The notes: generated by a model not told the origin, from the letters alone. A stretch of 64,000 nucleotides of DNA from Mycoplasmatales bacterium (GCA_965222855.1 CBDCUL010000012.1:5367-69366); one strand, 5' to 3'; positions 1,052-49,978 are shown, counted from the first letter of the stretch. Made by a program: numbers and translations.

Positions 1052-2320
1052 TTAAACAGTTTTAATTACTCAATGTAGATATGCACTATATATTGCAAAA
1101 TTATAAGAAATTGTTGCAATTGGTTTTTGCGTTGTTTTACTAATTACATTTCAAGTTTCAATTCCAGTTTTGGGATCAACTTTTCCTGCAACTAAATAAA
1201 CATCTTTTAATGTAGTTTTATTTGTTTTTTGAGTTTGATTAGTTTTGGCAATATATTCTTTAGCAGCTTCTGTTAATGTTGCCGCTACGTTAGTTAGTTT
1301 AGCTTGACTTGTATTTTTTAATTGTGTTAAATCATATGTTTTACTAAAACCAAATTTATAAGCAGCACGTGCAGCGTTATCACTAATTGATTTAGTATTA
1401 GCTTGACCTTGAAAACTAACAGTTAGTTTATTATCTTTAATAGTGCTAGTAATTAATTTATTATTAGCAATTTGATTTTTCGCTTTTGTGTCTCAATTTT
1501 GAATTCGAGTTGTACCGGGATAAAAATTAAGTTTTGTATCATTTCACATTGGCATATATAATGCATCAGCAAATTGAGTTAAAACGTTAGTATGAGGGTC
1601 ATTAAGCGCGAAGTCACGTCCTAGTTGGTTAATATTCAATAACCCACTTAAATCGTTAGTAACTCACACATTTTCGTTCGGATAATCTTCTGGTTGCATT
1701 TGAACGCTAAAAGGCATATTTTGAAAAGTTTTAAAAGTTTTAGTTGCCGCATTAGTATACGAAATTGTTCCTAAAGCAACTGCTGATGCAGTAACTTTAT
1801 TAACTTTAATCTTAAAATTACTTAATGCTTGTAAACCATATAATTGATGGTCTAGTTCATTTTGAACTTTTAGTGCTGTTGGTAGAATAGTGTAAGGAAT
1901 CATTTTGGTAATTTTTAAATTACTCATTTGATAATTTTTATTATCTAATGATTTAGTAAAATGATAACTTACTTTTATTGAAAATGTGTTTATATGAGTA
2001 TCGATAGTTATCGTTCCAGTAATTGTAGTTGTTGCAATTAGTTTTGTTGAATCATATTTAACAACACTAGTTGGTATTAATGGATTAATTACTAAATTAC
2101 TGAATACTGTTTTCTTAAGTTGCTTAGTAATTTCTTTTGAAATAACTGGTGCTAGATTATCAACTGAGAACGGTGCAATTATATTATTAATAGCAACTGT
2201 TTTAGCTTTACTTGGTGGCGTTCCTTTACCACAACTTGTAATTGTAGTGGCAACAACTCCAGTTGCTGCAATGATTGAAAAACTTGATAATAAGATTTTT
2301 AAATTTTTAGATTTTGACAT
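1052..2320 (-). CDS. lipoprotein (about 422 aa), tandem paralog 1
   Basis: Track ORF 1664..2320 begins MSKSKNLKILLSSFSIIAATGVVATTITSCGKG (signal peptide plus lipobox Cys). I translated 1663 down to 1052 codon by codon. Only TGA codons interrupt the frame, and the true stop is TAA at 1052-1054. Confidence 0.85.
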
Positions 2321-2322
2321 TT

Positions 2323-3594
2323 TTATAATTGCCCCTTTCCGTTTTTAAGTTGTAAAAATTTTCATTGTGATCCGGGTGCATCTGATGGTGTGAAGTAAAT
2401 GATTCCAATGATATCTTGCTTGTTTTCAGCATTAGGATTTCTTGCTATTCAAGAATTCATTGTATTAGGTGCAGCTGTGATTTTTAGATCCCCTATTGCT
2501 GTTTTTTCTTGTGCAATATATTGTTTTGTCGCTTCAGTTAAACTAGCGATTGCTCCATCCATTGTTGGGAAAGCATACGGAATTTTAGCTGTTAATAAAT
2601 CATATCCAGTAGTGACATTGAAATTATAAGCAACGCGACTTGCGTGATCGCTCGCAGCAGTAGTTGATAAATAACCATGATATTTAACAAAAACCGTATT
2701 GCTATTACCAGTAATTCGATCTATTTTACTACTAATCAATTTATTATTAGCAGCTTTTTGAGCTGGTGTTGTTGCATTTTTATTTCAGCGTAAAATATGT
2801 TTGAATCCTGCACCAAATTTTAATGTCGGATCGGCATAAGGTGCTTTTTGCTTATTAAAATCTTGTAAGATTTGTGCTCCCATAGCAGGATCATTTAATG
2901 CTAAGTCTCTTCCAAGAGCAGCAGTATCCATTAAGCCATTAAGATCTTTCGTAGTTCATAAATTATTTTCATCAGCACTTAGTTTTACACTAAAAGCTAA
3001 ATTACTTAATTGGTTATTAGTTTTAGTGTCAACGTATGAAATAGTTCCAGTTGCAACATTTTGTTCAGTAACAGTAGTAACTGTCAGTTGAACACTAGTT
3101 AATGCTTTAAATTTAACTAATTGGGCAGTTAGTGCTTTTTGAGCTCCCAAATTAGATAAACTTTGATGTGTTTCTGAACTATCAACGATCTTTAAATTTT
3201 TAATGCTATAAGTTTTAGTTGTAAATGAATAAACTACCATACAACTAATTGGGTCTAATTTATTAGCAATTTTAATATTACCGCTAATATTAACAAAACT
3301 AATTTTTAAAGCGCTATCATGCGCAATATTATTTTGATTGATTTCATTAATTGATAATGCAGAAAATTTTGTACTACCTAAATAATTAGTTATTTGTTTC
3401 TGAATTGGCGCTTTAATTTTAGCACGCGATAAAACTGCACTACTTGTTAAATTGGTGATATTAGTTGTTTTTGGATTATCACCATTTTTTGGATTACTTT
3501 TACCACAACTTGTGATTGTGCTTGCAACAACTCCAGTTGTTGCAACGATCGCAAAACTTGATAATAAGATTTTTATTTTTTTAGATTTTTGCAT
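2323..3594 (-). CDS. lipoprotein (about 423 aa), tandem paralog 2
   Basis: Track ORFs 2956..3594 and 2449..2739 share a frame and are joined through TGA codons (checked codon by codon). The signal is MQKSKKIKILLSSFAIVATTGVVASTITSCGKS. The C-terminal half aligns with the 1052-2320 product (LGRDxALNDP, AxxAYxF motifs). Confidence 0.85.
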
Positions 3595-7074: not shown

Positions 7075-7494
7075 TTAATTACTTTGTGAATCTAAATAAT
7101 TCTGCAAAATAATTTGAGCGGCCATTTTATCTTTTTGTAATTTGCGCTTTTTGCGCGATACATTAGCGCTAATTAAAACTTGTTGCGCGATTCTCGTACT
7201 TAAACGCTCGTCAAACAAAATAACTTCTTGTTTGACAATGCTTCTTAATTCAGTTGCGAAATCTTCGGCCATTATTGTCCGTTCAGATTTCGTCCCATTC
7301 ATTCTGATTGGGTGTCCTAAAATAATTTTCGCAATTTCATAACTATTACAGTACGCTACGATTTTATCATAAGCGGCTTGAAAATCATAATGAATAAAAA
7401 TAAAGTTTTCTTTACTAGTGGCAATGATTTGGGACTCATCACTTAAAGCAATCCCTAATGATTTAATGCCTAAGTCTAGCCCTAATACACGCAT
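7075..7494 (-). CDS. ruvX: Holliday-junction-resolvase-like nuclease YqgF/RuvX
   Basis: MRVLGLDLGIKSLGIALSD N-terminus in a 139-aa product, immediately downstream of alaS. Confidence 0.9.
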   Translation of the reverse strand: MRVLGLDLGIKSLGIALSDESQIIATSKENFIFIHYDFQAAYDKIVAYCNSYEIAKIILGHPIRMNGTKSERTIMAEDFATELRSIVKQEVILFDERLSTRIAQQVLISANVSRKKRKLQKDKMAAQIILQNYLDSQSN

Positions 7495-10263
<2,769 letters not shown>

Positions 10264-10354
10264 AATTAGTAACCTCTTATAATGATTTTTTGTTGTTTAA
10301 TTTAATGTAAATTCTAACCTAATTTAGCTAAAAATACAAATACAAATACAAATC

Positions 10355-12532
10355 TTATTTAATTAATTGCGCCATGATTGTAGCGCGGTGATAATAGTAG
10401 TTGTTTTTAATGGCAATGTTGAGTGCTTTTAAATGGCCAAATAGATATAGTTCTTTACTAGCACGCGTAATTCCCGTATAAATAATTTTCTTATTCAGCA
10501 TACGATAATAGTCAGTTAAGAGTGGAATTAAAACGTATTGCGTTTCACTTCCTTGTGCTTTATGAATTGAAATCGCATAAGCTAGCGTAACGTGAATAAT
10601 AAAATCACTATATTTATAATTAACAATTTTTTCACCAAATTCTAAGTGGACGATTTTGGCCGTTAAATCAATGTCAGTGATGTAGCCAAAATCACCATTG
10701 AACAAGCCGTTATCTTTGCGATTTTTCAAATGCATTATTTTATCGCCAACACGATAATTATGAATTCCAATAATCATTTGTTTTTTATTTGGTGTTAGTG
10801 GATTGATCATTTTTTGAACTTGGCGATTAATTGCATCGATCCCACAAACACCATTATATACTGGTGCTAGAATTTGGACATTTTCAATGCCGTGTTTTTG
10901 AACTAATTGACAATATTTATTAGTTAATTCTAACAAAGCGTTCTGATTCGATAATTCTTTAAAAAATGATTCACTTTTAATTAAGTCTAATTCGGTAATT
11001 GGTTTAAAGTTCAGAATCATTTTTGATAATTTTAAAATGCCGCTTCCTTTACCTTGACGATAAATTTTTTCTAACTTCGTAATATTAATATCAGATGAAG
11101 TTAATAAGTCGCGTAATAAACTACCAGGCAGAACTGATTCTAATTGTTGTTCATCACCAACAATTACGAGTTTTTCTAATTGTGGTAATGCTAAAAGTAG
11201 TTGTTCAAATAATCAAGTATCGACCATTGAAAATTCATCAATAATTAAAATTTTATGATCTAGAGGATTATGTTGATTAAAATCAAACCGATTAGTATGG
11301 GCGTCTCACATTAATGCTTTATGAATTGTTGAAGCATAGTAATGCGTTTTTTCACGTAATATTTTGGCCGCTTTACCAGTTGGTGCTAATAATAAAATAC
11401 TTTCTTTGCTAAAACGTTTATCTAAATTTTGAACAATTGTTTTAATAATTGAAGTTTTCCCCGTTCCTGGTCCACCAGTAATAATTGTCAGCGCTTTGTT
11501 AAGAGCATCTTTAACTGCTTTATTTTGAATATCGTCTAAAATAATCATTTGATCTTTGGGAATTATTAACGTATTAAATTGCGTTGGTTGATGTTTATTT
11601 TTTAATTTTTTAATTTGTAATACAATTTGATGGGCTGCATTAAAAAATTTATCACTAGTTAATTTCCCTTGCATGAAAAAGACTTTTTTCTGGGTAATTA
11701 AATCTTTAATCAAATTGATAAAGACTAATTCTAAATTCATTTCTGAATTAGTCTTTAGCGCATATTGATGAATTCAATCTTGCGTATTATTAAAGATTAC
11801 ATCAGGCGCTAATAATGTGTCACCACTTTTGAATGCTAATTGATTAATCGCATAGTTAAGCGCTGCTAAAACACGTAGTTTTGGGTCTAAATCAGTAACT
11901 AGATTAGCAATAATATGATCAGCTACTTTGAAATTTAAACCATCAACTTCTTCAATGATTTGATAGTTTTTATCACGAATTGTTTTTAAGAGATTTTCTT
12001 CACCATAGAAATTAGTTAAGCGCACATAATAGCGCATTGAAATTTTATTAGTAATAAAAAATTGATGTAATTCATTAATTTCTTGATTTTGTAATAATAC
12101 TTCAACAACAACATCTAATTTGGCTTTTTTAAGATCTTTAATTTCATGAATTTTTTGCGGATCTGCCATTAATATAATTAATGTTTTTGGTCCAAAATGA
12201 GCAACAATTTTTTCAGCAGTATTTTTACCAACACCAGGAAATAAACTACTAGATAAATATTTAATAATTCCTTCTTTCGAATCAGGCGTGATTTTGGCAA
12301 AACTACTAACATGAAATTGACGCCCATATTTTGGGTGCGCTTTAAATTCACCATTTAACACATAAGACTCCTCAGCGCTCAAAATTGGTAAAGTACCAGT
12401 AATAATCACACTGCGTTTTTCTTTCGCATTATACGTTGTTTCTGGAACAAAAGATGCTACTAAATAAGAGTTCGATTCATTATAAAAAATTATATTTTTA
12501 AACATTCCTCTTAGTTCCATAAAATTCCTCAT
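10355..12532 (-). CDS. recD2: RecD2-type SF1B ATP-dependent DNA helicase
   Basis: Track fragments 10355..11020, 11306..11740 and 11774..12532 are all in one frame. Motifs seen: Walker A GGPGTGKTS, LLAPTGKAA, SIHKAQGSE, YTGITRA. The true start may be the ATG at 12520 behind GAGGA. Confidence 0.85.
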
Positions 12533-12677
12533 TTCCCAGACTTTAATTACTTTGTAAAAATTATAACAGATTCTAAAATAAAAATTTTGGAAATAAATTA
12601 ATTAAAAAAATAACTGATTTATAATATTAATTAAAAATATGACCGATAAAGATCGATCATATTTTTAATTGTGATTT

Positions 12678-13460
12678 TTAATTTCAATTATTAATAATTT
12701 TGGCAACATCTTTAGCACGACGAATACATAAGCTATGACGCGCTAAAGGCATCATCACTAATTCATGTTTAATCGGGATTTGATTTGATAATAAAGAAAT
12801 CTCAACTGGTTTAGAAATCGGGTCATCTAAACCACTGACAATTAATGTCGGCGTATTTAGTTTTGCCACAAATTTATTAAATGTAGCTTGATTCATACTT
12901 GATGATAAATCTTGGAAAATTCGATTATACATATCGTGTAATTTTTTATTTTTACGAGCGATAACATGTGCTATAATAGTCGTTATTATTTTATTTGGTT
13001 TATATAATAACTCTTCCCTAACTAGTTTACGTAAAACGTTACTATCAGTTGATACTAAACGTTTTACTAAATTTAAATCTTCGGAAATATCAATTGGTGG
13101 TGGTGACAGTAACACAGTTTTTACAACAACTGGATTAGTAGCACTAATCATTACCGCAAATAAACTGCCAATTGAATGACCAATAATAATGACGTTTTTT
13201 AATTTTAAAGCACTAATAACTTGATTAATTGATTCAACAAATATTTTATAATCAAGTTTGCGTTTTTGATTCAACAATACGGAATTACCATGACCAATTA
13301 AATCAATCGCATAAACATTACCATCGCGTAATTTCGGTGCTAAGTTCATCATCTCACGATGATCGGCAGCAAAACCATGAATTAATAAATAATTGAAACG
13401 GGTATTAATTTTTAATTTTTTATAAACAGCTATCTTATAATCTGAAAATTCTAAAATCAT
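12678..13460 (-). CDS. alpha/beta-fold hydrolase (esterase/lipase-like)
   Basis: HGFAADH and nucleophile-elbow GHSIGS motifs. The terminal TGA is read as Trp, and the stop is TAA at 12678-12680. Confidence 0.8.
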
Positions 13461-13568
13461 TGATATTCACCAACATTCTTTTAAATTTGATTATTTTTAA
13501 CTATATTGGGTCGTTGTTATGTTTCTTCATATTAAACTATATTAAAGGTACAATTATATAATATCTTA

Positions 13569-28616: not shown

Positions 28617-29720
28617 GTGAAAAAAAACTATAAAAACCGTAAAATAATGAAAAAAAGTAAATTAATAGTTTTGAGTTTATTAACTATTCCAATATTTAGT
28701 TTGGTTAGTTGTCATAAAACAACTCATTACCCTCATGTTGTTAAATGACAAGAACTTAGTGAAGCTGATAGTCCATGAACAAGGTTTAGACAATTAGCAG
28801 AAACAAACACAGCAACCGCTTTAAAGCAGACTTTAACTAACGATCAATTATTTGATTATAAATGACATTTGGATGATATAGTAGCGTTCCAAAATCCAGA
28901 AGCACCTTTTATTATTGACAATATTAATTGATCAGTTTCTGCATACCTAGTAATTAAAGGCGCTAATGCGAACGATCCGCGCCCTGTTTATTTTATCATT
29001 AATTATCTTAATAATGTTTATAATAAACACAATTGAAATTCTTCAAGTTATATCAAAAAATATAATGATAATTGAACAGAGTTTAAAGCGATAACACAAA
29101 AACTTTATCCTGCTCAAATTTTAACGGAAGCACGTAAACACAATAAAGCAACTAGTTGAGCTGATAGTGATAAAGCAACTTGAGATATTTATGGTTCTAA
29201 CGGCGCTAGTGATCCTTATAAAGGAATGCAAGGTAATATAAAATTTGATGAAACGCATCATAGTGTCAGTGGCGTTATCTCAATTGATGGTTTTAAAAAT
29301 GGTGATGCAAAACCAATTGCAATTGAAATGACGAAACAATTTAATCAGAAATATCAAAGTAGTGATTGAACATTTAATGATATATCACAAATGCAATCAC
29401 GCGCATCTTTTCAAGCTGCTTGTCAATACGCAATTACTAATCAATATTCAAATCATTTTCTAAAGCATCATAGTTTTATTAAATCTACTTTAATAAAAAG
29501 TCATCAAGCAGATCCTAATCGCCCTTTTACAATTGACAAAAATTTAACTGCTTCATATAGTAAATGAAAAAATGCTTGATTAGTCGCTACTTATGTTGAC
29601 TTTTTTGACATCGGAACAGGCACAGCGCGTAGTGTGCCAATCCATAACTTATTAATGCTAACAACTAAAAATGGTCCAATAGGACCTGCGTATCAAGATA
29701 ATGGGTGAGAATTTGATTAA
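28617..29720 (+). CDS. Trp-rich repeat lipoprotein (family member 0)
   Basis: GTG at 28617 behind AGGTGA, or ATG at 28647. The signal is ...KSKLIVLSLLTIPIFSLVSCHK. It has repeated W-x-x-F-(K/R)-x-x-A modules and many TGA Trp codons. Stop is TAA at 29718-29720. Confidence 0.75.
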
Positions 29721-29835: not shown

Positions 29836-31128
29836 TTATGTAGTTGATTGGACATGGAAAATATTAATCATTGTTTGTTCGAAAGGACCATCACCCCATA
29901 CTTTAGAATCGCTAAATCCATAGTTAGCTTTTGAGAGGCGGGCAAATGCTGTTTTATCTTCACTTTGATTTTTGACACTATGGAAACCATCAGTAATTAA
30001 TGGATTAGTTTTAATATGGTAAGTTGTTCCAACTCCCAAATTATTACTACTACTGCTTCCAATAGCGGTTAGTGAAATAACGCCAGTTGTTGTATCAACT
30101 GAATCAACACTTAGAGATGTTAGTGTTAATGTTGGTGACCCACCTGGTAAAAATCCAAACCTACCCATTCAAGTTTGTTTAAATGTATGCGCCCCTTCAC
30201 TAGTATCACTTGGATTATTCATTCCTAAAAAAGCATTTAATTCAGTTTTGATTTCATCCGATGTGACTGCATTAGTAATAACTGTGTTATTGAATGATTT
30301 AGCAGTCATTGTACTTGCGTTTGGTCCTGTTGTTGTTGTTGAATTAGTTGAAAAATTAGTTGAAATATTAACAACCGCTTCATTACTAGTGCTATCGCTA
30401 CCAGTCATTGTAAATGTATAATCAGTCGAAATAGCAAATCCTCCACCAGCACCAGCTTGTAAATTAGTTAGTCATTGTGTTTGACCAGTTGGTGAGTCAA
30501 GATGACTTTTAGCACTAATTTTATTAATGCTAAATTTACTAACACCTTGATAATTTAAAGTGTTAGCTTGTGTATTGGCACCAAAAATTTTTACTAATTG
30601 GGTTTGATCAGTTTTAATCGTATTAAAAAATTTTGATACGTTATAACTAGCGCCATCATCATAATCATTTCAATTACCACTAACATAATTTTTATGTTCT
30701 CAAGCATTGAAAACAGCTTTACTATTGTTATATACTTGGCCGATCGGATCACCCTTTTTACCTTTCATCATCACTAAAGCGACAGTATTTTTTGCATCAT
30801 AAGAAAACGCTTCTTCAAATGCTGCCGAAGTATCTTGAGCAAGTTTAGGTACTTGTGGGTTTGTAACATCTATCATTGCAACTAGTTTTTGACTAATAGT
30901 AGTTGGGTCTAAAATGGCACTACCTCAATAATCGGTCGCCCCAAAAGCTTTATATTTATCACTAGTAATTATAGCTTTACCATCGTTATTAGCAGCTTTG
31001 GCAAAGTCGTTAAAAACACCACCGCCTCCGCCTTTGTGACCGCTACCACAACTAGCTAAACTCAATGAAATCGAACCAGTACCAAACATTATCCCAGCAG
31101 CAATTATTGATTTTAGAATTTTTTTCAT
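29836..31128 (-). CDS. lipoprotein (430 aa), tandem paralog A
   Basis: Track ORFs 30925..31128, 30169..30408 and 29836..30168 are in one frame. The signal is MKKILKSIIAAGIMFGTGSISLSLASCGSG. Confidence 0.85.
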
Positions 31129-31265
31129 TTTATCTCCTTATTATTTTTAATTTTTTAGTTGTATATATTTATATATATATAATATAATAAATTTTATTAT
31201 TATGCACACAAAATATTAATAATTAAAATTTATTTTATACTTTAAATATTAGTTACTTACATCTT

Positions 31266-32552
31266 TTAAGTTGTTGTAGATATTAATGTTAAACGAAAAA
31301 TATTTAACATCGTCTCTTGTAAATAATTGTCTCCTCATGTTTCGGCACTATCAAAATGATAATTAATTTTTGAAAAACGCGCATATGTAGTTTCAACTTT
31401 ATTTGGACTCAACGCACTATGAAATCCATTAGTAATTAATTTATCAGTTTTAATGTTGTAAGTAATCTCTCCTAAATTATTACTATTAATACCACTACCA
31501 GTAGCAATTAATCAAATAGTGCCATCTGGTTCAATTTGATTAATTTTTAATGAAGACAATGTTACTGTTTTAGTATTTGTCTCAGTTTGATCACGATATA
31601 CTTTAAACTTATCTAATCATGTTTTTTTAAAATTATTTGGCTCATCATAAGGATTATTACTATTTAAGAAACTATTTAATTCTGCTTTAATTTGATCTGG
31701 TGTGGCCCCGCTAGTAATTTGTGTATCGTTAAATGAACTAGCAACAAGCGCATCCACTTTAGGTGCTATTGGTGCATCGGCATTAATTGAGAAATGGGTT
31801 GTAACATTAATCACTTTTTCATTATTAGTGCCATCAATTCCAATCAGTATTATTGTATAGTCGCTATCAATTGCTAATCCGTTTTTCACAATATTACTTA
31901 TTATGAAATTGGTTTTTGTTTTTGAATATCTTAAATAACTTTTAGCACTAATTTTATTAAGGCTAAATTTAGTAATGCCAGAATAGTTTAAACTATCACT
32001 TTTATGATTACTACTAAAAAGTGCCATTAGTGAATTTTGATTTGTTTTTAAATTATCAAAAAATTGACTAACATTATAATTAGGGGCATTGTCATAATCA
32101 CTTCAATTTGACGCCACATATGCTTGATGATTTCAACTATTAAAGATTACTCTACTACTATGTAATAGTTGTTGATAAGTACTGCCTTTTTGACCTTTAA
32201 TCATAACTAATGTAATTGTATTTTGACCATCATAATTAAATAATTGTTCAAATGAAGCATTAACATCTTGGTTTAAAAAATTAGTTGGTAAATCGACAAT
32301 GCCAGATAATTTAATATTAATTTTTTCTGGATCTAAAATCGCACTACCTCAATAATGATTTACACCAAAACTTTTATATTTATCACTAGTAACAACTGCT
32401 AACCCATCACTATTTGCAGTTTTGGAAAATTGCTGAAAAGAAAGTGGTTTTTGTTGATAGTGTTTACTACAACTAGTAGCAAATCCTAGAACAATCATAT
32501 TTGTACTAAGAGCAACCATAGTAGCCATAAATGATTTTCATGTTTTTTTCAT
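31266..32552 (-). CDS. lipoprotein (428 aa), tandem paralog B
   Basis: ATG at 32552 gives MKKTWKSFMATMVALSTNMIVLGFATSCSK, in frame with track ORF 31617..32027. It is colinear with 29836-31128 (SDKYKxFG..YWGSAILDP, KFSxNKISAKS, ITxGFHS). Confidence 0.8.
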
Positions 32553-40883: not shown

Positions 40884-41094
40884 TTTTGTTTAATAAAACT
40901 CAAAAATCATTAATAAAAATAAAAAAATAATCATTAATAATAATGGTTATTTTTTATATAATATGCGAAGTCTCTTAAAATATATAATTATTTTAATTTA
41001 TAAAAGTTGTAATTTTATTAATAGCAGCTAATCGTTTAATATTAAAAATGAAGTATAATTATATATATATAAGATATAAGAAGGAGTGCAAATA

Positions 41095-42252
41095 ATGAAA
41101 AAGTTATCAATTAAAATTTTATCATCAATGATAGCTATTAGCTCAATTGCATCTTTAAGTGGTAGTTTAGTTGCTTGTCATAAAAACTCAACTCCAGAAA
41201 AAAATACTTGAGATGATTTTAAAGCATTGGCAAAACAAGAAACCGCACCAAGCTTAAAAGCAATTATTAATCATAATGATTTAAATCTTTATCATTGAAA
41301 AACTAATGATATTGCTATTTTTAGCGCAGGGGGGGTAATCACTCCTTCTGAGAAGGCAGAAACACTTAGTGCAACAATCATCATTGCAAATCCTAGTGCT
41401 CCAGATTTAAAATGACCAATTAATTTAAAAATTTCTTATAATAAAGGTGAAGTTTATACTATTAATAATTGATCTTGGTCCCAAGATCATAGTATTAATA
41501 GTTGAGACTCATTTAAAAATAAAGCTATGGGTCAATCAGCAAGTGATTTATTAGCACTAATTAAACCATGAAATGACACAAAAAAATATCTCTGAACTTA
41601 TGGAGTGCAATCACAAATTACTTGATCTAAAACTGATCAAGCTGAATTTGATACTTTTGGTAATTTAACAACTCAAGATAAATATTTGGGAATGCAGGGT
41701 AAACCAAAAGTTGATAATATAAAGGAACATACTATAACAGCAATCATTTCTAAAAAAGGTAAAAATGGGGCTTATGATTCTGATCCGATAAAAGCAACTG
41801 CAACTTATACTATTGATCGCGCTTATCAAAATAGTGATTGAGTTTTTTCTAAAGATATTCAATTACAATCACTTGCAATGATTCAAAAAAATTATAATGA
41901 TGAAATCGCGCTTATTAAAGCTAATTTTGATAATTTTGGCAAAAATAATTGAGTTACTTATAGCGTTAATCCCACAAACAACCAAAACCAAAGAGCAATT
42001 CAGCATTCAATTCTTTTTGATGAGTCTCTAAATGATGCTGGTTATGATTATCATAGCGATAATGCTTTTGATGAATCATTTAATTTTAGTAATATAGCAA
42101 ATGGTTTACAATCAAAAATAATTATTAATTTTCAATATAAAAATGCAATTCACCAATTATCATTGTATTTTGATTATACGTTTTTTAATAAAGAAGATAT
42201 TAATGATGGTTTAAGCACTTTTAATTATACTTGATCAGGAATAGTTGACTAA
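41095..42252 (+). CDS. Trp-rich repeat lipoprotein (family member 1, 385 aa)
   Basis: AAGGAG RBS. The signal is MKKLSIKILSSMIAISSIASLSGSLVACHK. There are about 20 in-frame TGA codons at repeat-conserved Trp positions (TWDDFKALAKQE..., SWDSFKNKAMGQ...). Stop is TAA at 42250-42252. Confidence 0.8.
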
Positions 42253-42288
42253 CTATTAATACTAACTTAATTACAAGGAGAAAATCTC

Positions 42289-42648
42289 ATGAATCAAAAA
42301 ACACAAAAATTACCGAAAGATAATCACAAAATTAATTTTAAAGAATATCGCATCTTAGCAACAGCCGGTGATATTGAAATGATGAAAAAAAACTTAAAAC
42401 CACATATTTGGGAAAACATTCCTTTCATTGGTTGTTTATGTTATATTATTAGAATGACTTTAAAGAATAGTAATATTGATCGTGGCCCATTACGTCGTGA
42501 AATGGTTAAATATCGCTTAATATTAATGGCATCAACATTATTAATTTGAGGTGACTTAATTTTATTTGTTACTCCATGATTATTATATTTACCAATTAAA
42601 TTAGCAGTTAATAAAGTTCAAAGTCAATTAGATAATAACGAAATTTAA
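42289..42648 (+). CDS. 119-aa two-helix membrane protein (cassette partner 1)
   Basis: Track ORF 42289..42549 extends through two TGA codons to TAA at 42646-42648. A terminator lies at 42667-42698. Confidence 0.75.
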
Positions 42649-42801
42649 TTGATGATTATCTAAATAAAAAAACAAAGAATTAAATTTCTTTGTTTTTTAA
42701 TAATCAGATCTAACTTATTAGTGAATAGTAAATCAATAGTTTGTTATTAAAAATAAAGTATAATTATATTATATATAAGGCTTAATAAGGAGTGTCAAAT
42801 A

Positions 42802-43953
42802 ATGAAAAAGTTATCAATTAAAATTTTATCATCAATGATAGCTATTAGTTCTATTGCTTCTTTAAGTAGTAGTGTAGTTGCTTGTCATAAAAACTCAACT
42901 CCATCAAAAAATAGTTGAGCAGCTTTTAAAGTATGGGCACAACATGAAACTGCGCCCAACTTAAAAGCAATTATTAATATTAATGATTTAAATTCTTATC
43001 ATTGAAAAACTAGTGATGTTGCTGCTTTTAGTAAAAATGGCGCTCCTAGTGTTTCTGATAATGATCAATCACTTAGCGCAACAATCATCATCGCAAATCC
43101 TAGTGCCTCAGATTTAAAATGACCAATTAATTTAAAAATTGCTTATACTAAAGGTAAAGTTTATGCCATTCGTGATTGAACTTGATCACAAGATCCAACT
43201 ATTAATACTTGGGCCACATTTAAAAATAAGGCTCTTAGTGAATTAGCTAGTAATTTATTAGCACAACTACAACCTTGAAATGACGTAAAAAAATATCTCT
43301 GAACTTATGGTATTCAATCACAAATTACTTGGGCCAAAACTGATCAAGCTGAATTTGATACTTTTGGTAATTTAACAGCGCAAGATAAATACTTAGGTAT
43401 GGCAGGTAAGCCAGAAGCTCATAATATGGAGCGCACAATCACAGCAATCATTTCTAAAAAAGGTAAAAATGGTGCTTATGATTCTGATCCGATAAAAGCA
43501 ATTATTACTTATCATCTTAATCGAGGTTACGAAATTAGTAATTGAGTTTTTTCAAAAGATATTCAACTACAATCATTTGCCAGAATTAAAAAAAGTTATA
43601 ATGATGATGCTGCTCTTTTAAAATCTAGTTATAATAAATTTACTGCAATTAATTGAGTGACTTTAAACAAAGATCCTGTATCAGACCAAAAAGCAATTCA
43701 TCATTCAATCAGTATTGATGATTCACTTAATCACGCTAATTTTAGCAACCATAATACTGATGCTTTCTATATGGCAACTGGGTTTTTAAATATTTCAGAC
43801 GGATTGCAAAGTAAAATTGTTATCAGTTTTAATTGTCAAGGCATCCCTCACTATTTATCTCTTTTTTTTAATTATACATTTTTTAATAACAAAGATATCG
43901 ATGGTGGTTTAACAGCTTTTAATCGAACTTGAAGTGGTAAAGTTACTATTTAG
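42802..43953 (+). CDS. Trp-rich repeat lipoprotein (family member 2, 383 aa)
   Basis: The RBS, signal and architecture are near-identical to 41095-42252. It is in frame with track ORF 43657..43932. Stop is TAG at 43951-43953. Confidence 0.8.
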
Positions 43954-44084
43954 TGATTAGTGATTATTAAACTTATTTTTAATTTTTGATAACTATATTA
44001 AATAATGCTTGTTATTAAACTAATTGATTTTTATAAAATACTATTATATAATTAATAATAAATTAAAAATAAGGAGTGATCGTA

Positions 44085-44444
44085 ATGGAATCAAAAAATT
44101 ATCAAGAAGTTGTCGAAAATAATGATATTGATTTTGCAACAGAACGAATTCTTAGAACCACTGGCGATATTGAAATGATGCGCGAAAACTTAAAACCTTA
44201 TATCTGAGAAAATATTCCACTACTTGGTTGTTATTGTTATATTTTTAGAATATTTTTTAAAGAATTTAGTATGGATCGTAAACGACCGCTACGTCGTGAA
44301 ATACATAAAACTCGCGTTGCTTTTATGTTTATAACAATGTTTTTATGAAGTGTTATCGTGATGTTTACTCCATGATTATTATATTTAACAATTAAATCAG
44401 CAGTTGATGAAGTCCAAATTAAATTAGACAATAACAAAATTTAG
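44085..44444 (+). CDS. 119-aa two-helix membrane protein (cassette partner 2)
   Basis: AAGGAG RBS. MESKNYQEVVENNDIDFATERILRTTGDIEMMRENLKPYIWENIPLLGCYCYIF... is colinear with the 42289-42648 product. A terminator lies at 44461-44493. Confidence 0.75.
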
Positions 44445-44539
44445 TAATAATTAGCTCACTAAAAAAACAAAGAATTTTAATTCTTTGTTTTTTAATTTTA
44501 ATAATTTATAATCCAATATTATAATAATAATCTGTCTTA

Positions 44540-46336
44540 TTATTTAATTTCACTTGTATATAATCCTGAAGCGTTTTCTTTAATAAAGACATGTGTCCCA
44601 TCAGTGCTTAAACTATCCATTTGTGCTGCTTTTAGTTTAGTGCTAAGATTGAAATAATCTAGTCCGAAACCAGCAGATGTATATAATCCTTTATTAGTAA
44701 TCGCATAAAGAGTATCATGCATAGCTACTACATTTAAAACTGAAATTGTTTTACCTAAAGTATCGTTAATTTTAAAATTAACTGATTTAGCCTTTGGACT
44801 AATATAAATGCCAGTGTTAGTACTTAAATAAATTTCGTTATTAATACTTGAAATATTATATGCTTTATCTGCGGCAGTTGCCGGTGCTCAGGCTAGGCTA
44901 GATGTATCGTCCCCATCGACTGCACCAGTATAAAGTGCATGTAATCCTGCTTTGACACCATAAGACGCAGCATCAATATACACATAACTATTACCATCTA
45001 TATATTTCATTCAAGAAATTGTTACATCTTTTCCATCTTCTAAATTTGAAAAGCCGGTGAATTTTGAAAAAACAGTTCCATCATCATCTTTTCCGGCACT
45101 ATTAACTGGGTTACGTCATAGTCCATTTTCTTTTGTCGCAGCTCAAATTTTACCATTCATAAATTCTAATTTGGTAATATTTAATGCTCCGGGACCATTA
45201 ATATAAGTAGCCAATAGTCATTTATTGCCTGCTCCTGCTGATTTGAATATACCTGTAGTTGTTCCAAGATATATTTTATCATTAAGAGCTACTATCGAAG
45301 TCATAATGATTGATCTACTAATAAAGCTTGGATCAATTGTAAAAAATATTGCTGGTGTTCCCGGAGTAATAATAGCTGAAATTAAACCTATGTCAGCATT
45401 AGGCGCTGTCCCACTAACTGGTGTTGTTGCAACAAAAATGTTACTGTGGCCTTGTTCAACAATACCAATAACTTTAGTTGCGCTATCGATTGTAAGGTTA
45501 TCATTCATTTTTACTTTTGTAAAAGTTTTATCGTCAGTCGAACTTCAAAGTCCACCAACTCCACCAACATAAACTGTGCCCTCAATTGTTTTTGTAACAT
45601 AATCTTTTGCTGTCCCTGTTTGAGCACCAGGTAAGACTATTTGTGAAAAGTCTAAATCATCTTTATTAGTTGCTGATGCCCCGTTAGCGCTTCAATCTAT
45701 TGTTTGGTATGTTCGATTAAGTGTATAAGTAGCAGTGAAAACTGCTTTTTGGCTTTGTTTCCGATCAGCAACTGTTAGAGTTACTGTGTGGTTAGCGTTT
45801 TTAACTAATGCACTAATAACTTTAAATCCATCATCGTTTTTTCAACCTGATTGACTTGGAGTTGCTTTAGTCGCAATATCATTACCTGCACCATCTATAA
45901 TAATAGCCTTTTGAATGTCACTGATAAATTGTGCTTCAGTATGAGTTTGTCCATCATCATTTGCAGGTTGAATAATACATTTTCATACATCAACTTTATA
46001 AGTTTGACCTTTTGTATAAGTAGCTGTGAAAGTTGCTTTTTCATTTGAAGACTTAAAATCAATTACCATTGTCACAACTGTTTTAGTTGCTGATACATTT
46101 GTTGTTAAAGTGCTAGCTGGATTTAATCAACCATTTCAAGCTTGTGCTTTTGGGCTAGCGTTTTTAATAACATTAGTTGCACTTTCGGCTTTCGCTGATT
46201 TAAGAAAATTAGCAAGTGTGTGATCGACAGCATCTTTTTTAGAACATGATGTTACAATACTGCTCCCAAAACTAAGTAAACTAACGGCTCCTAATGAACC
46301 GGTTAGTAATTTAACTAATCGCAATTTTTTAATCAT
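44540..46336 (-). CDS. beta-propeller lipoprotein with Asp-box-like repeats (copy 1, 598 aa)
   Basis: Track ORFs 46136..46336, 45218..45508 and 44540..44722 are in one frame. The signal is MIKKLRLVKLLTGSLGAVSLLSFGSSIVTSCSKK. The C-terminal about 380 aa has 7-8 repeats of x-Y-x-G/S-T-x-x-G-(L/I)-(Y/W/F)-x-S, plus STDDKTF and STDGTHVF. Confidence 0.85.
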
Positions 46337-46552
46337 AATCTACTCCTTATATAAAATTTCGTTAATAATAAATATCATTTTAATTTAATAATTGGTTATT
46401 TTTTCAGTAGGTTTATCTTCATTACATTTAACAAAAATCCCTAATGTAATCTTTAAAATTATTACAAAATATGACTTTTATTAAAGAATATATAGCACTA
46501 TTTAAAAATTAAAATAATTAAAAAAATAACTCCTATTCTAAGTCAAAACTTT

Positions 46553-46574
46553 TATATATATATATATATATATA
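46553..46574. repeat. (TA)11 microsatellite
   Basis: Counted directly. It sits inside the conserved noncoding element about 220 nt upstream of the 46336 start. Confidence 0.7.
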
Positions 46575-46777
46575 ATAACATTTAATTAAGTAAAAGAATA
46601 TTACTCATTTTAACTACTATTTTTAATTTGCTATTAAAGTCTGAAGTATAATTAATATATCTCGTTGTTATTTAAAGATGATTATAATTGATAGTGATTT
46701 ATTTCTAAATTCCATTATTAACTTTACATCTTAAATTAACTATATAACTATCATGTGATTCATTAAACATAAAAATC

Positions 46778-46946
46778 CAAAACTTTATATCTGGGGAAGT
46801 ATTCCACTAATTGGTTGTTATTGTTATATTTTTAGAATATTTTTTAAATAATTTAGGATTAATCGTAACGACTACTACGTCGTGAAATAGTTAAAAAATA
46901 GCAGTTGATGAAGTCCAAATTAAATTAGACAATAACAAAAATTTAG
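46778..46946 (+). pseudogene. decayed, internally deleted copy of the 119-aa membrane-protein gene
   Basis: Aligns with 44195-44280 and 44400-44444 of the intact gene. It lacks the 5' third and the second helix. The same terminator sequence follows it. Confidence 0.75.
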
Positions 46947-47052
46947 TAATAATTAGCTCACTAAAAAAACAAAGAATTAAAATTCTTTGTTTTTTAATTT
47001 TAATAATTTATAATAAAACATTCGAATAATTTTTTTAAAATCATAAGATAAA

Positions 47053-48834
47053 TTATGATTTAATTTCAGATGTATATAATCCTAAACCAGTTTCATGGAT
47101 AAAGACATGTGTTCCATCAGTGCTTATACGATCCATTTTTGTTGATTGTATTTTCGTAGTAAGGTTAAAATTATCAAAGTCGTAACCAGCTGATGTATAT
47201 AATCCTTTATTAGTAATAGCATAAAGAGTATCATGCATAATTACTACATTTGAAACCGAAATTGTTTTACCTAAATTCTCATCAATTTTTAAGTTTAGTG
47301 ATGCAGCTATTGGACTAACATAAAGTCCAACGTTAGTACTTAAATAAATTATGTTACCAATAGTTGAAATATTGTATGCTTCATCTTTGGCAGTTGGTGG
47401 TGTTCATATTCTAACTGCTCCATCATTTCCATCGTCTTTACCAGTATGAAGCACATATAATCCTGCTGCTGCTGCAGGGCTAGCTATATATGCATAACTA
47501 TTATTAGATGTATATTTCATTCAAGAAATTTTTATATCTCCTAAATTTTTAAATTCAAAATTTGAAAAAACAGTTCCATTATCATCTTTTCCTGGCTGGT
47601 TAACTGGACTACGTCATATCCCATTTTTTTCTGTGGTAGCTCAAATTTTACCATTCATAAATTGTAATTTAGTAATATTATAATTTGAAGCCCCGCCAAA
47701 ATTAGTTGTTAGTCATTTATTACCTGCTCCTGCTGATTTGAATATACCTGTAGTTGTTCCAACATATACTTTCTCCTTGTAAGCAGCTATCGAAGTCATA
47801 ATTAATGAGTGACTAAAATAATCACCAGCAATTGAAGAAAATATTAATGGCGTACCTGGAGTAACTACAGCTGAAAGTAAACCTATATTAGGATCGGGTT
47901 TAGCTCCGCCAACTGGTGCTGTTGCAACAAAAACGTTTTTTTGTTGTTCGGATCCTTGCTCAACAATACCAATAACTTTAGTAGCATTAGTCATTGGGTC
48001 ACTATTCATTTTTACTTTTGTAAAAGTTTTATCATCAGTTGAACTTCAAAGTCCACCAACTCCTCCGACATAGACTACGCCAGCAATTGTTTGTGTAACA
48101 TAATCATTTTCTGTACCTGATTCAACACCAGGTAAGACTATTTTTGAAAAGTCTAAATCATCTTTACTAATCGATGATGCTCCGTTGGCACTTCAATCTA
48201 TTGTTTGATATGTTCGATTAGATGTATAAGTAGCAGTATAAACTGCTTTTTGAGTTTGTTTACGATCGGCAATTGTCACTGTGACTGTGTGGTCATTGTT
48301 TATTACTAATGCCCCAATAACTTTAAAGCCATCATCACTTTTTCAACCTGATTGACTTGGAGTTGCTTTAGTCGCAATATCATTACCTGCACCCTTTATC
48401 AAAACAGCATTTTGAGCATCAGCTCTAAATTGTAATTCAGTATGAATTTTACCGTCATTGTTCTTAGGTTGGTCATAACATTTTCATACATCAACTTTAT
48501 AAGCTTCGCCTTTCGTATAAGTTGCTCTGAAAGTAGCTATTTCATTTGAAGATTTAAAATTAATTACCATTATCACAATCATTTTGTTTGTTGATACTTC
48601 TTTTGTGAAAACACTTGTTGCATTTACTCAACCAGCTCAACCTTGCGCTTTTATACTAGCGTTTTTAATAACATTAGCGGCACTTTCCGCTTTAGCTGAT
48701 TTAATAAATTGAGCAAGTGAATGGTTATCGGCTTTTTTTGAACATGATGTTACAATACCGCTTCCAAAACTAAGTAAACTAACAGCTCCTAATGAACCAG
48801 TTAATACTTTAACTAATCGTAATTTTTTAATCAT
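47053..48834 (-). CDS. beta-propeller lipoprotein with Asp-box-like repeats (copy 2, 593 aa)
   Basis: Track ORFs 48637..48834, 47713..48009 and 47053..47238 are in one frame. It is a paralog of copy 1. Confidence 0.85.
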
Positions 48835-49061
48835 AATCTACTCCTTATATAAAATTTTGTTAATAATAAATATTATTTTAATTTAATAATTGGTTATTTT
48901 GGTTATTTTTTTCAGTAGGTTTATCTTCATTACATTTAACAAAAGTCCTTAATATAATCTTTAAAAATTATTACAAAAGATAACTTTTATTAAAGAATAT
49001 ATAGCACTATTTAAAAATTAAAATAATTAAAAAAATAACTCCTATTCTAAGTCAAAACTTT

Positions 49062-49081
49062 TATATATATATATATATATA
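49062..49081. repeat. (TA)10 microsatellite
   Basis: Same position in duplication unit 2 as the (TA)11 in unit 1. The flanks are identical. Confidence 0.7.
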
Positions 49082-49301
49082 ATAACATTTAATTAAGTAA
49101 AAGAATATTACTCATTTTAACTACGTTTTTCAATTTCATTATTAATTTTAGATCTTAAATCAATTATATAACTATCTTGTTGTTCATGAAACATAAAAAA
49201 ACCCAAAACTTGTAATCAAGTTTTGGGATATACAATAAATTAATTATAATACTTTAAATTTATTAATATTAATATTTCTAAAAATTATTATTATTATTTA
49301 A

Positions 49302-49964
49302 TTATTTTAAAAATGCTATGATTCTATTAATTGTTTTAATCAGTGGTTGTTCTATTTTTTTTGCTAGTATTTTAATTTTTGGAATCAATCGAAGTGCAAC
49401 AAAAAATAACAAAATATTAATAATATAAATAAATATATAATCAAAAAAAGAAATTAATTGCAATTTTTCCCATTTATCAATTTTGAAAGAATTAAATAAT
49501 ATTGGTCAAGCAATAAATTGTGTTATTAATAATGTTATTATTGTAAAAATAATAGCCATAAAGATATATACCAATACTAATATAAATCTTGGTGTATTTT
49601 TGTTATTATATTTTTTAAAGTGTTTATTATTTAGAATTCATCAACTACTAATGAATAATATAGCTGATTGAAAATATGCAATTCCAAAATCTCAATTTCC
49701 ATAAATCAAGATAATCATTATAGAATTTAAAATAGATATTATAAAAGCAAATTTATAGTCAATATAATACAGAGTAATTAAGACTATAAAAAAGCTTATA
49801 TCGGAAGGTAGAATATTAGGATTAAAATTATTAAGTAAAAATTCTGAAAAAAATATAATTATTAATGATAATACGAATAAAATTAGTAAATATATTATTT
49901 TATAAATAATTTTATTTTTCTGATTTAACTTTTCAATTTGGTATTCTAAAGAATTATTATTCAT
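49302..49964 (-). CDS. hypothetical polytopic membrane protein (about 220 aa)
   Basis: Track ORF 49692..49979 extends through TGA codons to TAA at 49302-49304. The preferred start is ATG 49964 behind AAGGTGA. Its 5' end abuts or overlaps the stop of the upstream pseudogene. Confidence 0.65.
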
Positions 49965-49978
49965 AAAATCACCTTTCA

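Follow-up and report, generated by a model that had tools for sequence, protein, structure and literature searches.

Mollicutes diversify their surface through lipoprotein families that turn over by duplication and pseudogenisation. The variable lipoproteins Vsp, Vlp, Vsa, Vpma, and Vmm are lipobox lipoproteins encoded in multigene arrays, in which a conserved 5' region and signal peptide precede a divergent mature part, duplication and pseudogenisation are rapid, and copy number is very different between close relatives. The same traits are found in two lipoprotein families, here called W and P, which occur with a small membrane protein, S, in a 64,000-nucleotide stretch of DNA (the window; 29% G+C) from an uncultured, mycoplasma-like Mycoplasmatales bacterium. 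W and P follow this known mode of surface diversification; the domains from which they are built are uncatalogued. In contrast to the variable lipoproteins, W and P match no described Pfam or NCBIfam family and have no near-identical in-frame repeats, as Tandem Repeats Finder reported no coding tandem repeats in W or P genes. Moreover, no recombinase open reading frame (ORF) or inversion site was noticed in the window, although recombinases were not searched for specifically. Unlike short repetitive antigens, the mature P protein is a large folded multidomain protein comprising modules and a propeller.

The MIB-MIP system of Mollicutes is likewise a surface system of adjacent genes present in several copies per genome. 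However, MIB and MIP genes are co-oriented and conserved across many species, whereas W and P genes are convergent and their pairing is not kept in relatives. MIP has a DUF31 protease domain, but neither DUF31 nor MIB was matched by W, S, or P in Pfam and NCBIfam. The predicted P propeller, with its recurring blade motif, resembles the periplasmic sensor domains of BT4663 and BT4673 and the GH74 xyloglucanases in structure, and its sequence match to the N-terminal propellers of PorZ is marginal. In contrast to these proteins, P carries a single propeller on a lipid anchor and two stalk modules, lacks kinase or regulator domains, the Y_Y_Y domain, and a type IX secretion context, and belongs to a wall-less Mollicute; unlike its Reg_prop and BNR relatives, it matches the family models at or below their thresholds. 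The module shared by W and P resembles the NTF2-like and VirB8-like tandem cone domains (iota-carbonic anhydrase, 7c5x; OrfG, 8s7l) in having helices followed by a curved antiparallel sheet, and the W1 model has weak Foldseek matches to tandem NTF2-like proteins, but the template modelling (TM) scores are only 0.15-0.5, sequence similarity is absent, and the module is smaller at about 90 residues. A literature search for a described propeller-lipoprotein system in Mollicutes found nothing relevant.

W and P are probably lineage-specific, rapidly diverging families of modular surface lipoproteins, and their adjacency in the window is better explained by local gene birth than by a conserved functional unit. 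We hold this reading with moderate confidence. It is carried by the domain composition of the proteins, by the positions of W and P genes in related genomes, and by the duplication structure of the locus.

Architecture of the W, S, and P proteins

Long clean ORFs occur in the window only under genetic code 4, in which TGA encodes tryptophan, and all ORFs and gene models were built with translation table 4. The genes of the W, S, and P region contain 9-13 in-frame TGA codons each and almost no TGG. With these gene models, the arrangement reported in the initial annotation, plus-strand W genes facing minus-strand P genes at two sites, is borne out, and all four peptides quoted there are present. 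The order at site 1 is W1-S1-W2-S2 on the plus strand facing P1 and P2 on the minus strand, and at site 2 W3 on the plus strand faces P3, P4, and a split P5 on the minus strand. A signal peptide and a lipobox cysteine at residues 22-31 occur in all W and P proteins, which places them, by the lipobox pattern [LVI][ASTVI][GAS]C, among the bacterial lipoproteins processed by Lgt and Lsp; a lipobox match is found in 14 of about 50 window genes.

W proteins: W1 (41095-42252, +; 385 amino acids, lipobox LVAC) contains a first module copy at residues 37-131, a divergent second copy with an insertion at residues 134-254, and a family-specific C-terminal alpha/beta domain at residues 255-385. W2 (42802-43953, +; 383 amino acids, lipobox VVAC) is 66% identical to W1, and W3 (58452-59573, +; 373 amino acids, lipobox AISC), which lies in the spacer between P3 and the 23S ribosomal RNA (rRNA) gene, is 35% identical to W1. 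A fourth W-type gene, LD (28647-29720, +; lipobox LVSC), had not been listed before; it shares 31% identity with W3 (E 3e-32) and differs at the C-terminus. The earlier description of W as tryptophan-rich stands in direction and less so in degree, since W contains 3.1-3.5% tryptophan against a window mean of 1.6%, only a modest enrichment; P contains 1.5-2.0%. Conserved tryptophan residues end each domain. The W family has 15 members among 5.8 billion clustered proteins, and a Foldseek search of W1 against BFVD gave nothing meaningful. A degenerate-DNA scan of metagenome contigs from JGI found no match to the W motif ISKK...GAYDSDPI or to the S motif KPxxWENIPxxGC. W, S, and P matched nothing in Pfam and NCBIfam except for one marginal propeller match, and PHROGs and PADLOC gave them no phage or defence link.

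Shared module: The module consists of about 90 residues of alpha+beta type, with three short helices followed by a four-stranded sheet that ends in Y-x-V-x-x-W. Its homology between the families is established by profile comparisons run without signal peptides. In hhalign, the first domain of W aligns with the first domain of P at a probability of 98.3% (E 1.2e-14), with the second domain of P at 98.2%, and with a W-free generic module profile at 99.7% (E 7.9e-27). The second domain of W aligns with the module at 97.1% (E 6.5e-11), and the two domains of P with each other at 99.0%. Moreover, a hidden Markov model made from non-W proteins only covers the full length of domain 1 in every W protein, with E from 1e-5 (W1) down to 4e-22 (W homologues). 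These matches therefore place two module copies in both W and P, the second copy of W carrying the insertion, and the copies inside one protein are strongly diverged. In the AlphaFold models of W1 and P1, with mean predicted local distance difference test (pLDDT) scores of 75 and 72, each module copy is predicted to consist of three short helices, three strands, a 3-10 turn, and a last strand. A shared N-terminal module, which the initial annotation had attributed to domain shuffling, is thus upheld by the profile alignments and by the common order of secondary-structure elements, and domain shuffling is supported as its explanation. In profile-profile comparison, the module shows no relation to the propeller or to the C-terminal domain of W.

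The module has no match in Pfam, NCBIfam, or PDB sequences and is a previously undescribed domain family. Other lipoproteins of the clade carry it 2-11 times, including P0020 (1035 amino acids, 11 matched stretches), P0024, and P0025, and a 617-residue protein of a related W locus (L001) has five copies. As it is present in many other lipoproteins, the module is no marker of a specific partnership between W and P.

P proteins: P1 (44540-46336, -; 598 amino acids, lipobox VTSC) has modules at residues 39-123 and 131-219 and an 8-bladed beta-propeller at residues of about 225-598. P2 (47053-48834, -; 593 amino acids, lipobox VTSC) is 68-70% identical to P1. P3 (59682-61481, -; 599 amino acids, lipobox IVGC) and P4 (61553-63346, -; 597 amino acids, lipobox IIGC) are 51% identical to each other, and P1 and P3 share 33%. 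An in-frame stop after ...GYDD divides P5, a recently formed pseudogene of the P array, into a C-terminal remnant (63550-63984, -) and an N-terminal ORF of 448 amino acids, which is a separate database protein (P0026) and extends past the window end. A sixth, intact P gene (P0022, 592 amino acids) lies past the window on the same 86.9-kb contig. The six P genes of this contig form one group in a neighbour-joining tree, which argues for a lineage-specific expansion, and an exhaustive HMMER search found full-length P proteins in three genomes only.

The predicted structure confirms the beta-propeller head already proposed from the sequence; the head has eight blades and is of the Reg_prop/BNR type. 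The P1 model (predicted TM score 0.67) shows about eight four-stranded blades in the C-terminal part, in which the blade motif h-h-Y-h-G-T-x-x-G-L-a-x-S recurs eight times. The best Foldseek matches of this propeller are the Bacteroides sensor propellers BT4673 and BT4663 (3ott, 4a2m; E 5e-10 to 1e-9), and GH74 enzymes and 8-bladed designer propellers (TM 0.7, normalised to the target) are matched as well. P1 reaches PorZ_N (PF21544) marginally, at 27.1 bits for a cut-off of 27, and P3 matches none of the Pfam families Reg_prop (PF07494), BNR (PF02012), and PorZ_N. The P proteins of relatives match BNR, Reg_prop, and the NCBIfam "glycosylhydrolase" family F510_1955 (E 1e-11 to 5e-20), all below cut-off.

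S proteins: S1 (42289-42648, +) encodes a small membrane protein of 119 amino acids with hydrophobic segments at about 41-58 and 73-100, and S2 (44085-44444, +; 119 amino acids) is 52% identical to it. S3 (46768-46939, +), between P1 and P2, is a 5'-truncated and frameshifted pseudogene. S4 (53801-54055, +), beside the 5S rRNA gene, is a pseudogene that covers residues 35-119, is 54% identical to S2, and has in-frame TAA stops. Judged from S3, S4, and P5, copies at this locus appear to decay fast. The protein database searched holds one distant S homologue only (P0019), and none turned up at the W and P loci outside the window.

W and P loci in related genomes

The relatives compared are metagenome-assembled genomes named Mycoplasmatales bacterium, comprising complete genomes of 981 kb and 759 kb and a few fragments. 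Their 23S rRNA is about 98% identical to that of the window. The housekeeping proteins are mostly 68-91% identical, and two uncharacterised or hydrolase-like proteins about 50%. Despite the similarity of the 23S rRNA, W and P are just 29-39% identical between the window and its relatives.

Repeated co-localisation of W and P would be expected in these genomes if the two families worked together, as the initial annotation suggested, but it is lacking. No P-type propeller gene is present near any of six distinct W loci outside the window, with flanks of up to 10 kb examined, and no W or S gene or remnant occurs within 10 kb of either P locus of the relatives (L009 in the 981-kb genome and L016 in the 759-kb genome). 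A distance of roughly 80-150 kb separates W arrays from P genes in both complete genomes.

In the relatives, W genes occur in tandem arrays or singly, at differing points of an otherwise syntenic backbone. Arrays of 4-7 W-family genes follow an ABC2 permease gene (7260-14654 of locus L001), follow rpsO (10001-20258 of L002), or lie between recD2 and alaS (4901-9752 of L008). Unlike in L008, recD2 and alaS are directly adjacent in the window. Permease or ribosomal genes surround the W loci L004-L007. Module-bearing lipoprotein genes tend to cluster, as in L001, where a five-module lipoprotein is faced by three W genes; such a pattern is expected of birth by local duplication. The W arrays behave like mobile islands, and no mobility genes were seen in them. 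The window gene Y2 (23768-25558, -; 596 amino acids) has no domain hits; a homologue with 31% identity is located where the W array of the 759-kb genome ends (L002, 20460-21203), and Y2 may represent another surface-protein family tied to W islands.

In contrast to W, P has a conserved position. In all three genomes, a P gene adjoins the 23S-5S rRNA genes, located by Rfam at 54242-57356 (-) in the window, 11011-14118 in L009, and 13505-16624 in L016, whereas W3 is found there in the window only. The spacer between P and 23S measures 2.3 kb with W3 in the window and 0.7 kb without a W gene in the 981-kb genome. In a neighbour-joining tree, two copies from within the W array of the 759-kb genome cluster with the W3 subfamily, which includes LD. 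The Rfam scan found no 16S gene beside the 23S-5S pair in the window or in either relative, and a P gene is directly upstream of 23S; in this genus, linkage between the rRNA genes therefore appears to be absent. At a distance of about 32 kb from the 23S-5S pair, the window has another 5S rRNA gene, which stands alone (22576-22680, -; 65.8 bits).

Duplication and transcription at site 1

Repeat analysis of site 1 identifies two overlapping head-to-tail duplications. The first is a [W-S] tandem unit of 1.7-1.8 kb, present at 41089-42795 and from 42796 to about 44500, with W2 belonging to the second copy. The second is an [S-P] tandem unit of 2.5 kb, with 44185-46771 as copy A and 46772-49199 as copy B. 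Its breakpoint falls within S, at about codon 34, which accounts for the truncated S3 between P1 and P2. Site 1 therefore descends from one ancestral triple, W and S facing P, and does not represent several independent pairings. The synonymous divergence (dS) is 0.43 for W1/W2, 0.56 for S1/S2, and 0.37 for P1/P2, by which the duplications appear similar in age, and the ratio of nonsynonymous divergence (dN) to dS is about 0.5.

W1 and S1 are probably co-transcribed, as S1 starts 37 nucleotides past W1, has its own AAGGAG ribosome-binding site, and is separated from W1 by no terminator or hairpin; they are the only pair of the cluster for which this appears to be the case. The same A/T-flanked hairpin of about -12 kcal/mol lies 3' of S1, S2, and S3. 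The copy after S1 (42666-42698; -12 kcal/mol) resembles an intrinsic terminator, the copy at 44461-44493 is a bidirectional terminator-like hairpin between the convergent S2 and P1, and the third copy (46964-46995) is between the S3 pseudogene and P2. At site 2, a similar bidirectional hairpin (59619-59651) separates the convergent W3 and P3. The convergent genes, which have promoters of their own and such hairpins between them, form separate transcription units, so co-transcription or shared regulation of W/S with P is not borne out. A promoter consensus scan was uninformative in this AT-rich DNA, with 55 sites found versus 60 expected.

The region upstream of P1 and P2 is 85-98% identical, and the mature coding part is 57-88% identical; dN is 0.05 in the signal peptide and 0.17-0.22 in the mature part. 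Upstream of each gene lies a perfect dinucleotide tract, (TA)11 at 46553-46574, 217 nucleotides from the P1 start, and (TA)10 at 49062-49081, 228 nucleotides from the P2 start. The two differ by one unit in DNA that is otherwise 94-98% identical, and such tracts may act as slippage-based switches. Vmm of M. mycoides is known to switch its promoter by a dinucleotide repeat (PMC2628566), and the repeats upstream of P1 and P2 are similar to it in kind. P1, P2, and perhaps other lipoprotein genes of the window could be phase-variable antigens controlled by slippage of the upstream (TA)n, with the paralogue arrays as an antigenic-variation repertoire. This possibility is compatible with lineage-specific diversification and would add a specific switching mechanism to it. 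The one-unit difference, the Vmm precedent, an imperfect (TA)13 (83% matches; 31162-31186) located 34 nucleotides upstream of the lipoprotein gene LE, and the conserved 5' regions preceding divergent mature parts, as in the variable lipoprotein families of mycoplasmas, all point in its direction. On the other hand, the tracts are about 220 nucleotides from the start codons with no convincing -35/-10 pair around them, the W genes and P3/P4 have no such tract, the (TA)8 of a relative sits in a pseudogene remnant and not in a promoter, and TA runs arise by chance in AT-rich genomes. We therefore consider phase variation by this route rather unlikely. Conservation of (TA)n upstream of P genes in relatives was rejected, as the tract in L009 lies inside a P pseudogene remnant. 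An imperfect (TA)15 (86% matches; 51511-51541) is also present in the spacer between the genes X2 and X3.

Competing explanations and the modular cell surface

Several points weigh against the view that W and P are independently diversifying families brought together by local gene birth. When tandem arrays were collapsed into 42 units, nine of them lipoprotein units, two of the three W units adjoined a P unit, for which shuffling of all 42 units gives P = 0.02. In the window, the module is present in the W and P families only, as it was absent from LA/LB, LC, LE/LF, LG, and X2/X3 when tested. The dN/dS ratio given above is by itself no proof of diversifying selection. In Foldseek, the module shows weak likeness to NTF2-like, VirB8-like, and iota-carbonic-anhydrase folds, with TM values of 0.3-0.5 for single domains, so that its fold assignment is weak. 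The sample of relatives is small, with two related complete genomes and a few fragments. Ligand binding by the heads, whether of host or environmental ligands, and of glycans in the case of the propeller, is the conjectural part of this view.

The two W-P junctions within 64 kb, which have the P value of 0.02 under the naive shuffle, and the restriction of the module to W and P in the window are also what would be seen if W, S, and P were subunits of one surface system, in which one transcript encodes W and S and the opposing one encodes P, and the proteins are joined via the module for adhesion or uptake. The probable co-transcription of W1 and S1, and the truncated S copy that moved with P in the 2.5-kb duplication, agree with such a system. 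However, P rises to 0.10 when shuffling is limited to the nine lipoprotein units and the slots they occupy. The convergent orientation is uninformative, because the minus strand carries most window genes and the plus strand every W gene, and thus the 3' end of a W block must face a minus-strand gene. The adjacency is missing in both related complete genomes and at every other locus examined, and S is absent from the W and P loci outside the window and has a single distant database homologue. W3 and P3 are paired without S, and LD converges on the LE/LF lipoprotein pair of another family, which has neither module nor propeller. The convergent genes are parted by terminators, the module is promiscuous, and decay has reached two S copies and one P copy. 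The initial annotation had read the repeated co-localisation as a sign of cooperation at the cell surface, but the repetition at site 1 reflects one tandemly duplicated unit of convergent, terminator-separated genes that share a widespread module. A single W-S-P system is accordingly judged unlikely.

A narrower version would confine such cooperation to this species, where W and P may associate through their stalk modules in a lineage-specific surface apparatus with S as the organiser and a propeller head presented for the binding of host glycans. We regard it as very unlikely. If true, the apparatus would be a recently assembled and still-evolving multi-component adhesin based on a previously undescribed domain family. 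Nutrient acquisition, with P as glycan-binding or glycoside-hydrolase-like surface enzymes of the BNR, GH74, or F510_1955 type and W as an accessory substrate-binding lipoprotein linked to nearby sugar, glycerol, and N-acetylmuramic acid genes, would fit the Foldseek matches to glycan-sensing hybrid two-component system propellers and GH74, the sub-threshold F510_1955 matches of relatives' P proteins, and the MurQ-like gene just upstream of W1, but it is similarly improbable, as no family threshold is passed apart from the marginal PorZ_N match, no catalytic residues are identifiable, the genome context is not kept in relatives, and the identity of 29-39% is a divergence unusual for metabolic enzymes.

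Other paralogous pairs occur in the window. LA/LB (38% identical) and LE/LF (44% identical) are tandem lipoprotein pairs of unrelated families, at 1052-3594 and 29836-32552. X2 (49979-51022, -; 347 amino acids) and X3 (52112-53620, -; 502 amino acids) are paralogues with 38% identity (E 9e-65) and without a family match, and X1 (49302-49979) weakly resembles the S components of energy-coupling factor transporters.

The preferred explanation, diversification of lineage-specific surface lipoproteins, may be outlined as follows. A lipid-anchored cysteine is followed by one to many modules of about 90 residues and by a family-specific head, an 8-bladed propeller in P and an alpha/beta domain of about 130 residues in W. 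The modules would act as a stalk or scaffold that presents the head at the cell surface, where the heads might bind host or environmental ligands, including glycans in the case of the propeller. W and P are thus presumably displayed at the surface and may serve in antigenic or adhesive diversity. S is a small membrane protein that is probably co-transcribed with W. At site 1, a single triple of W and S facing P grew by the two overlapping tandem duplications. At site 2, an ancestral rRNA-adjacent P gene gave rise to four or more copies, and a W gene was put into the spacer only in this genome. The families would have been expanded and pruned through tandem duplication and pseudogenisation.

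The locus carries a caution for the reading of gene neighbourhoods, as recurrent adjacency in one genome together with a shared domain can come from tandem duplication without a functional system. Both the module and the architecture of a lipid-anchored 8-bladed propeller merit an entry as a domain family, and both could mark host-interaction genes in this uncultured clade. The W and P families illustrate the construction and renewal of the surface of a wall-less bacterium, in which an uncatalogued module is combined with different heads, multiplied, and discarded while the rRNA within the genus remains about 98% identical.

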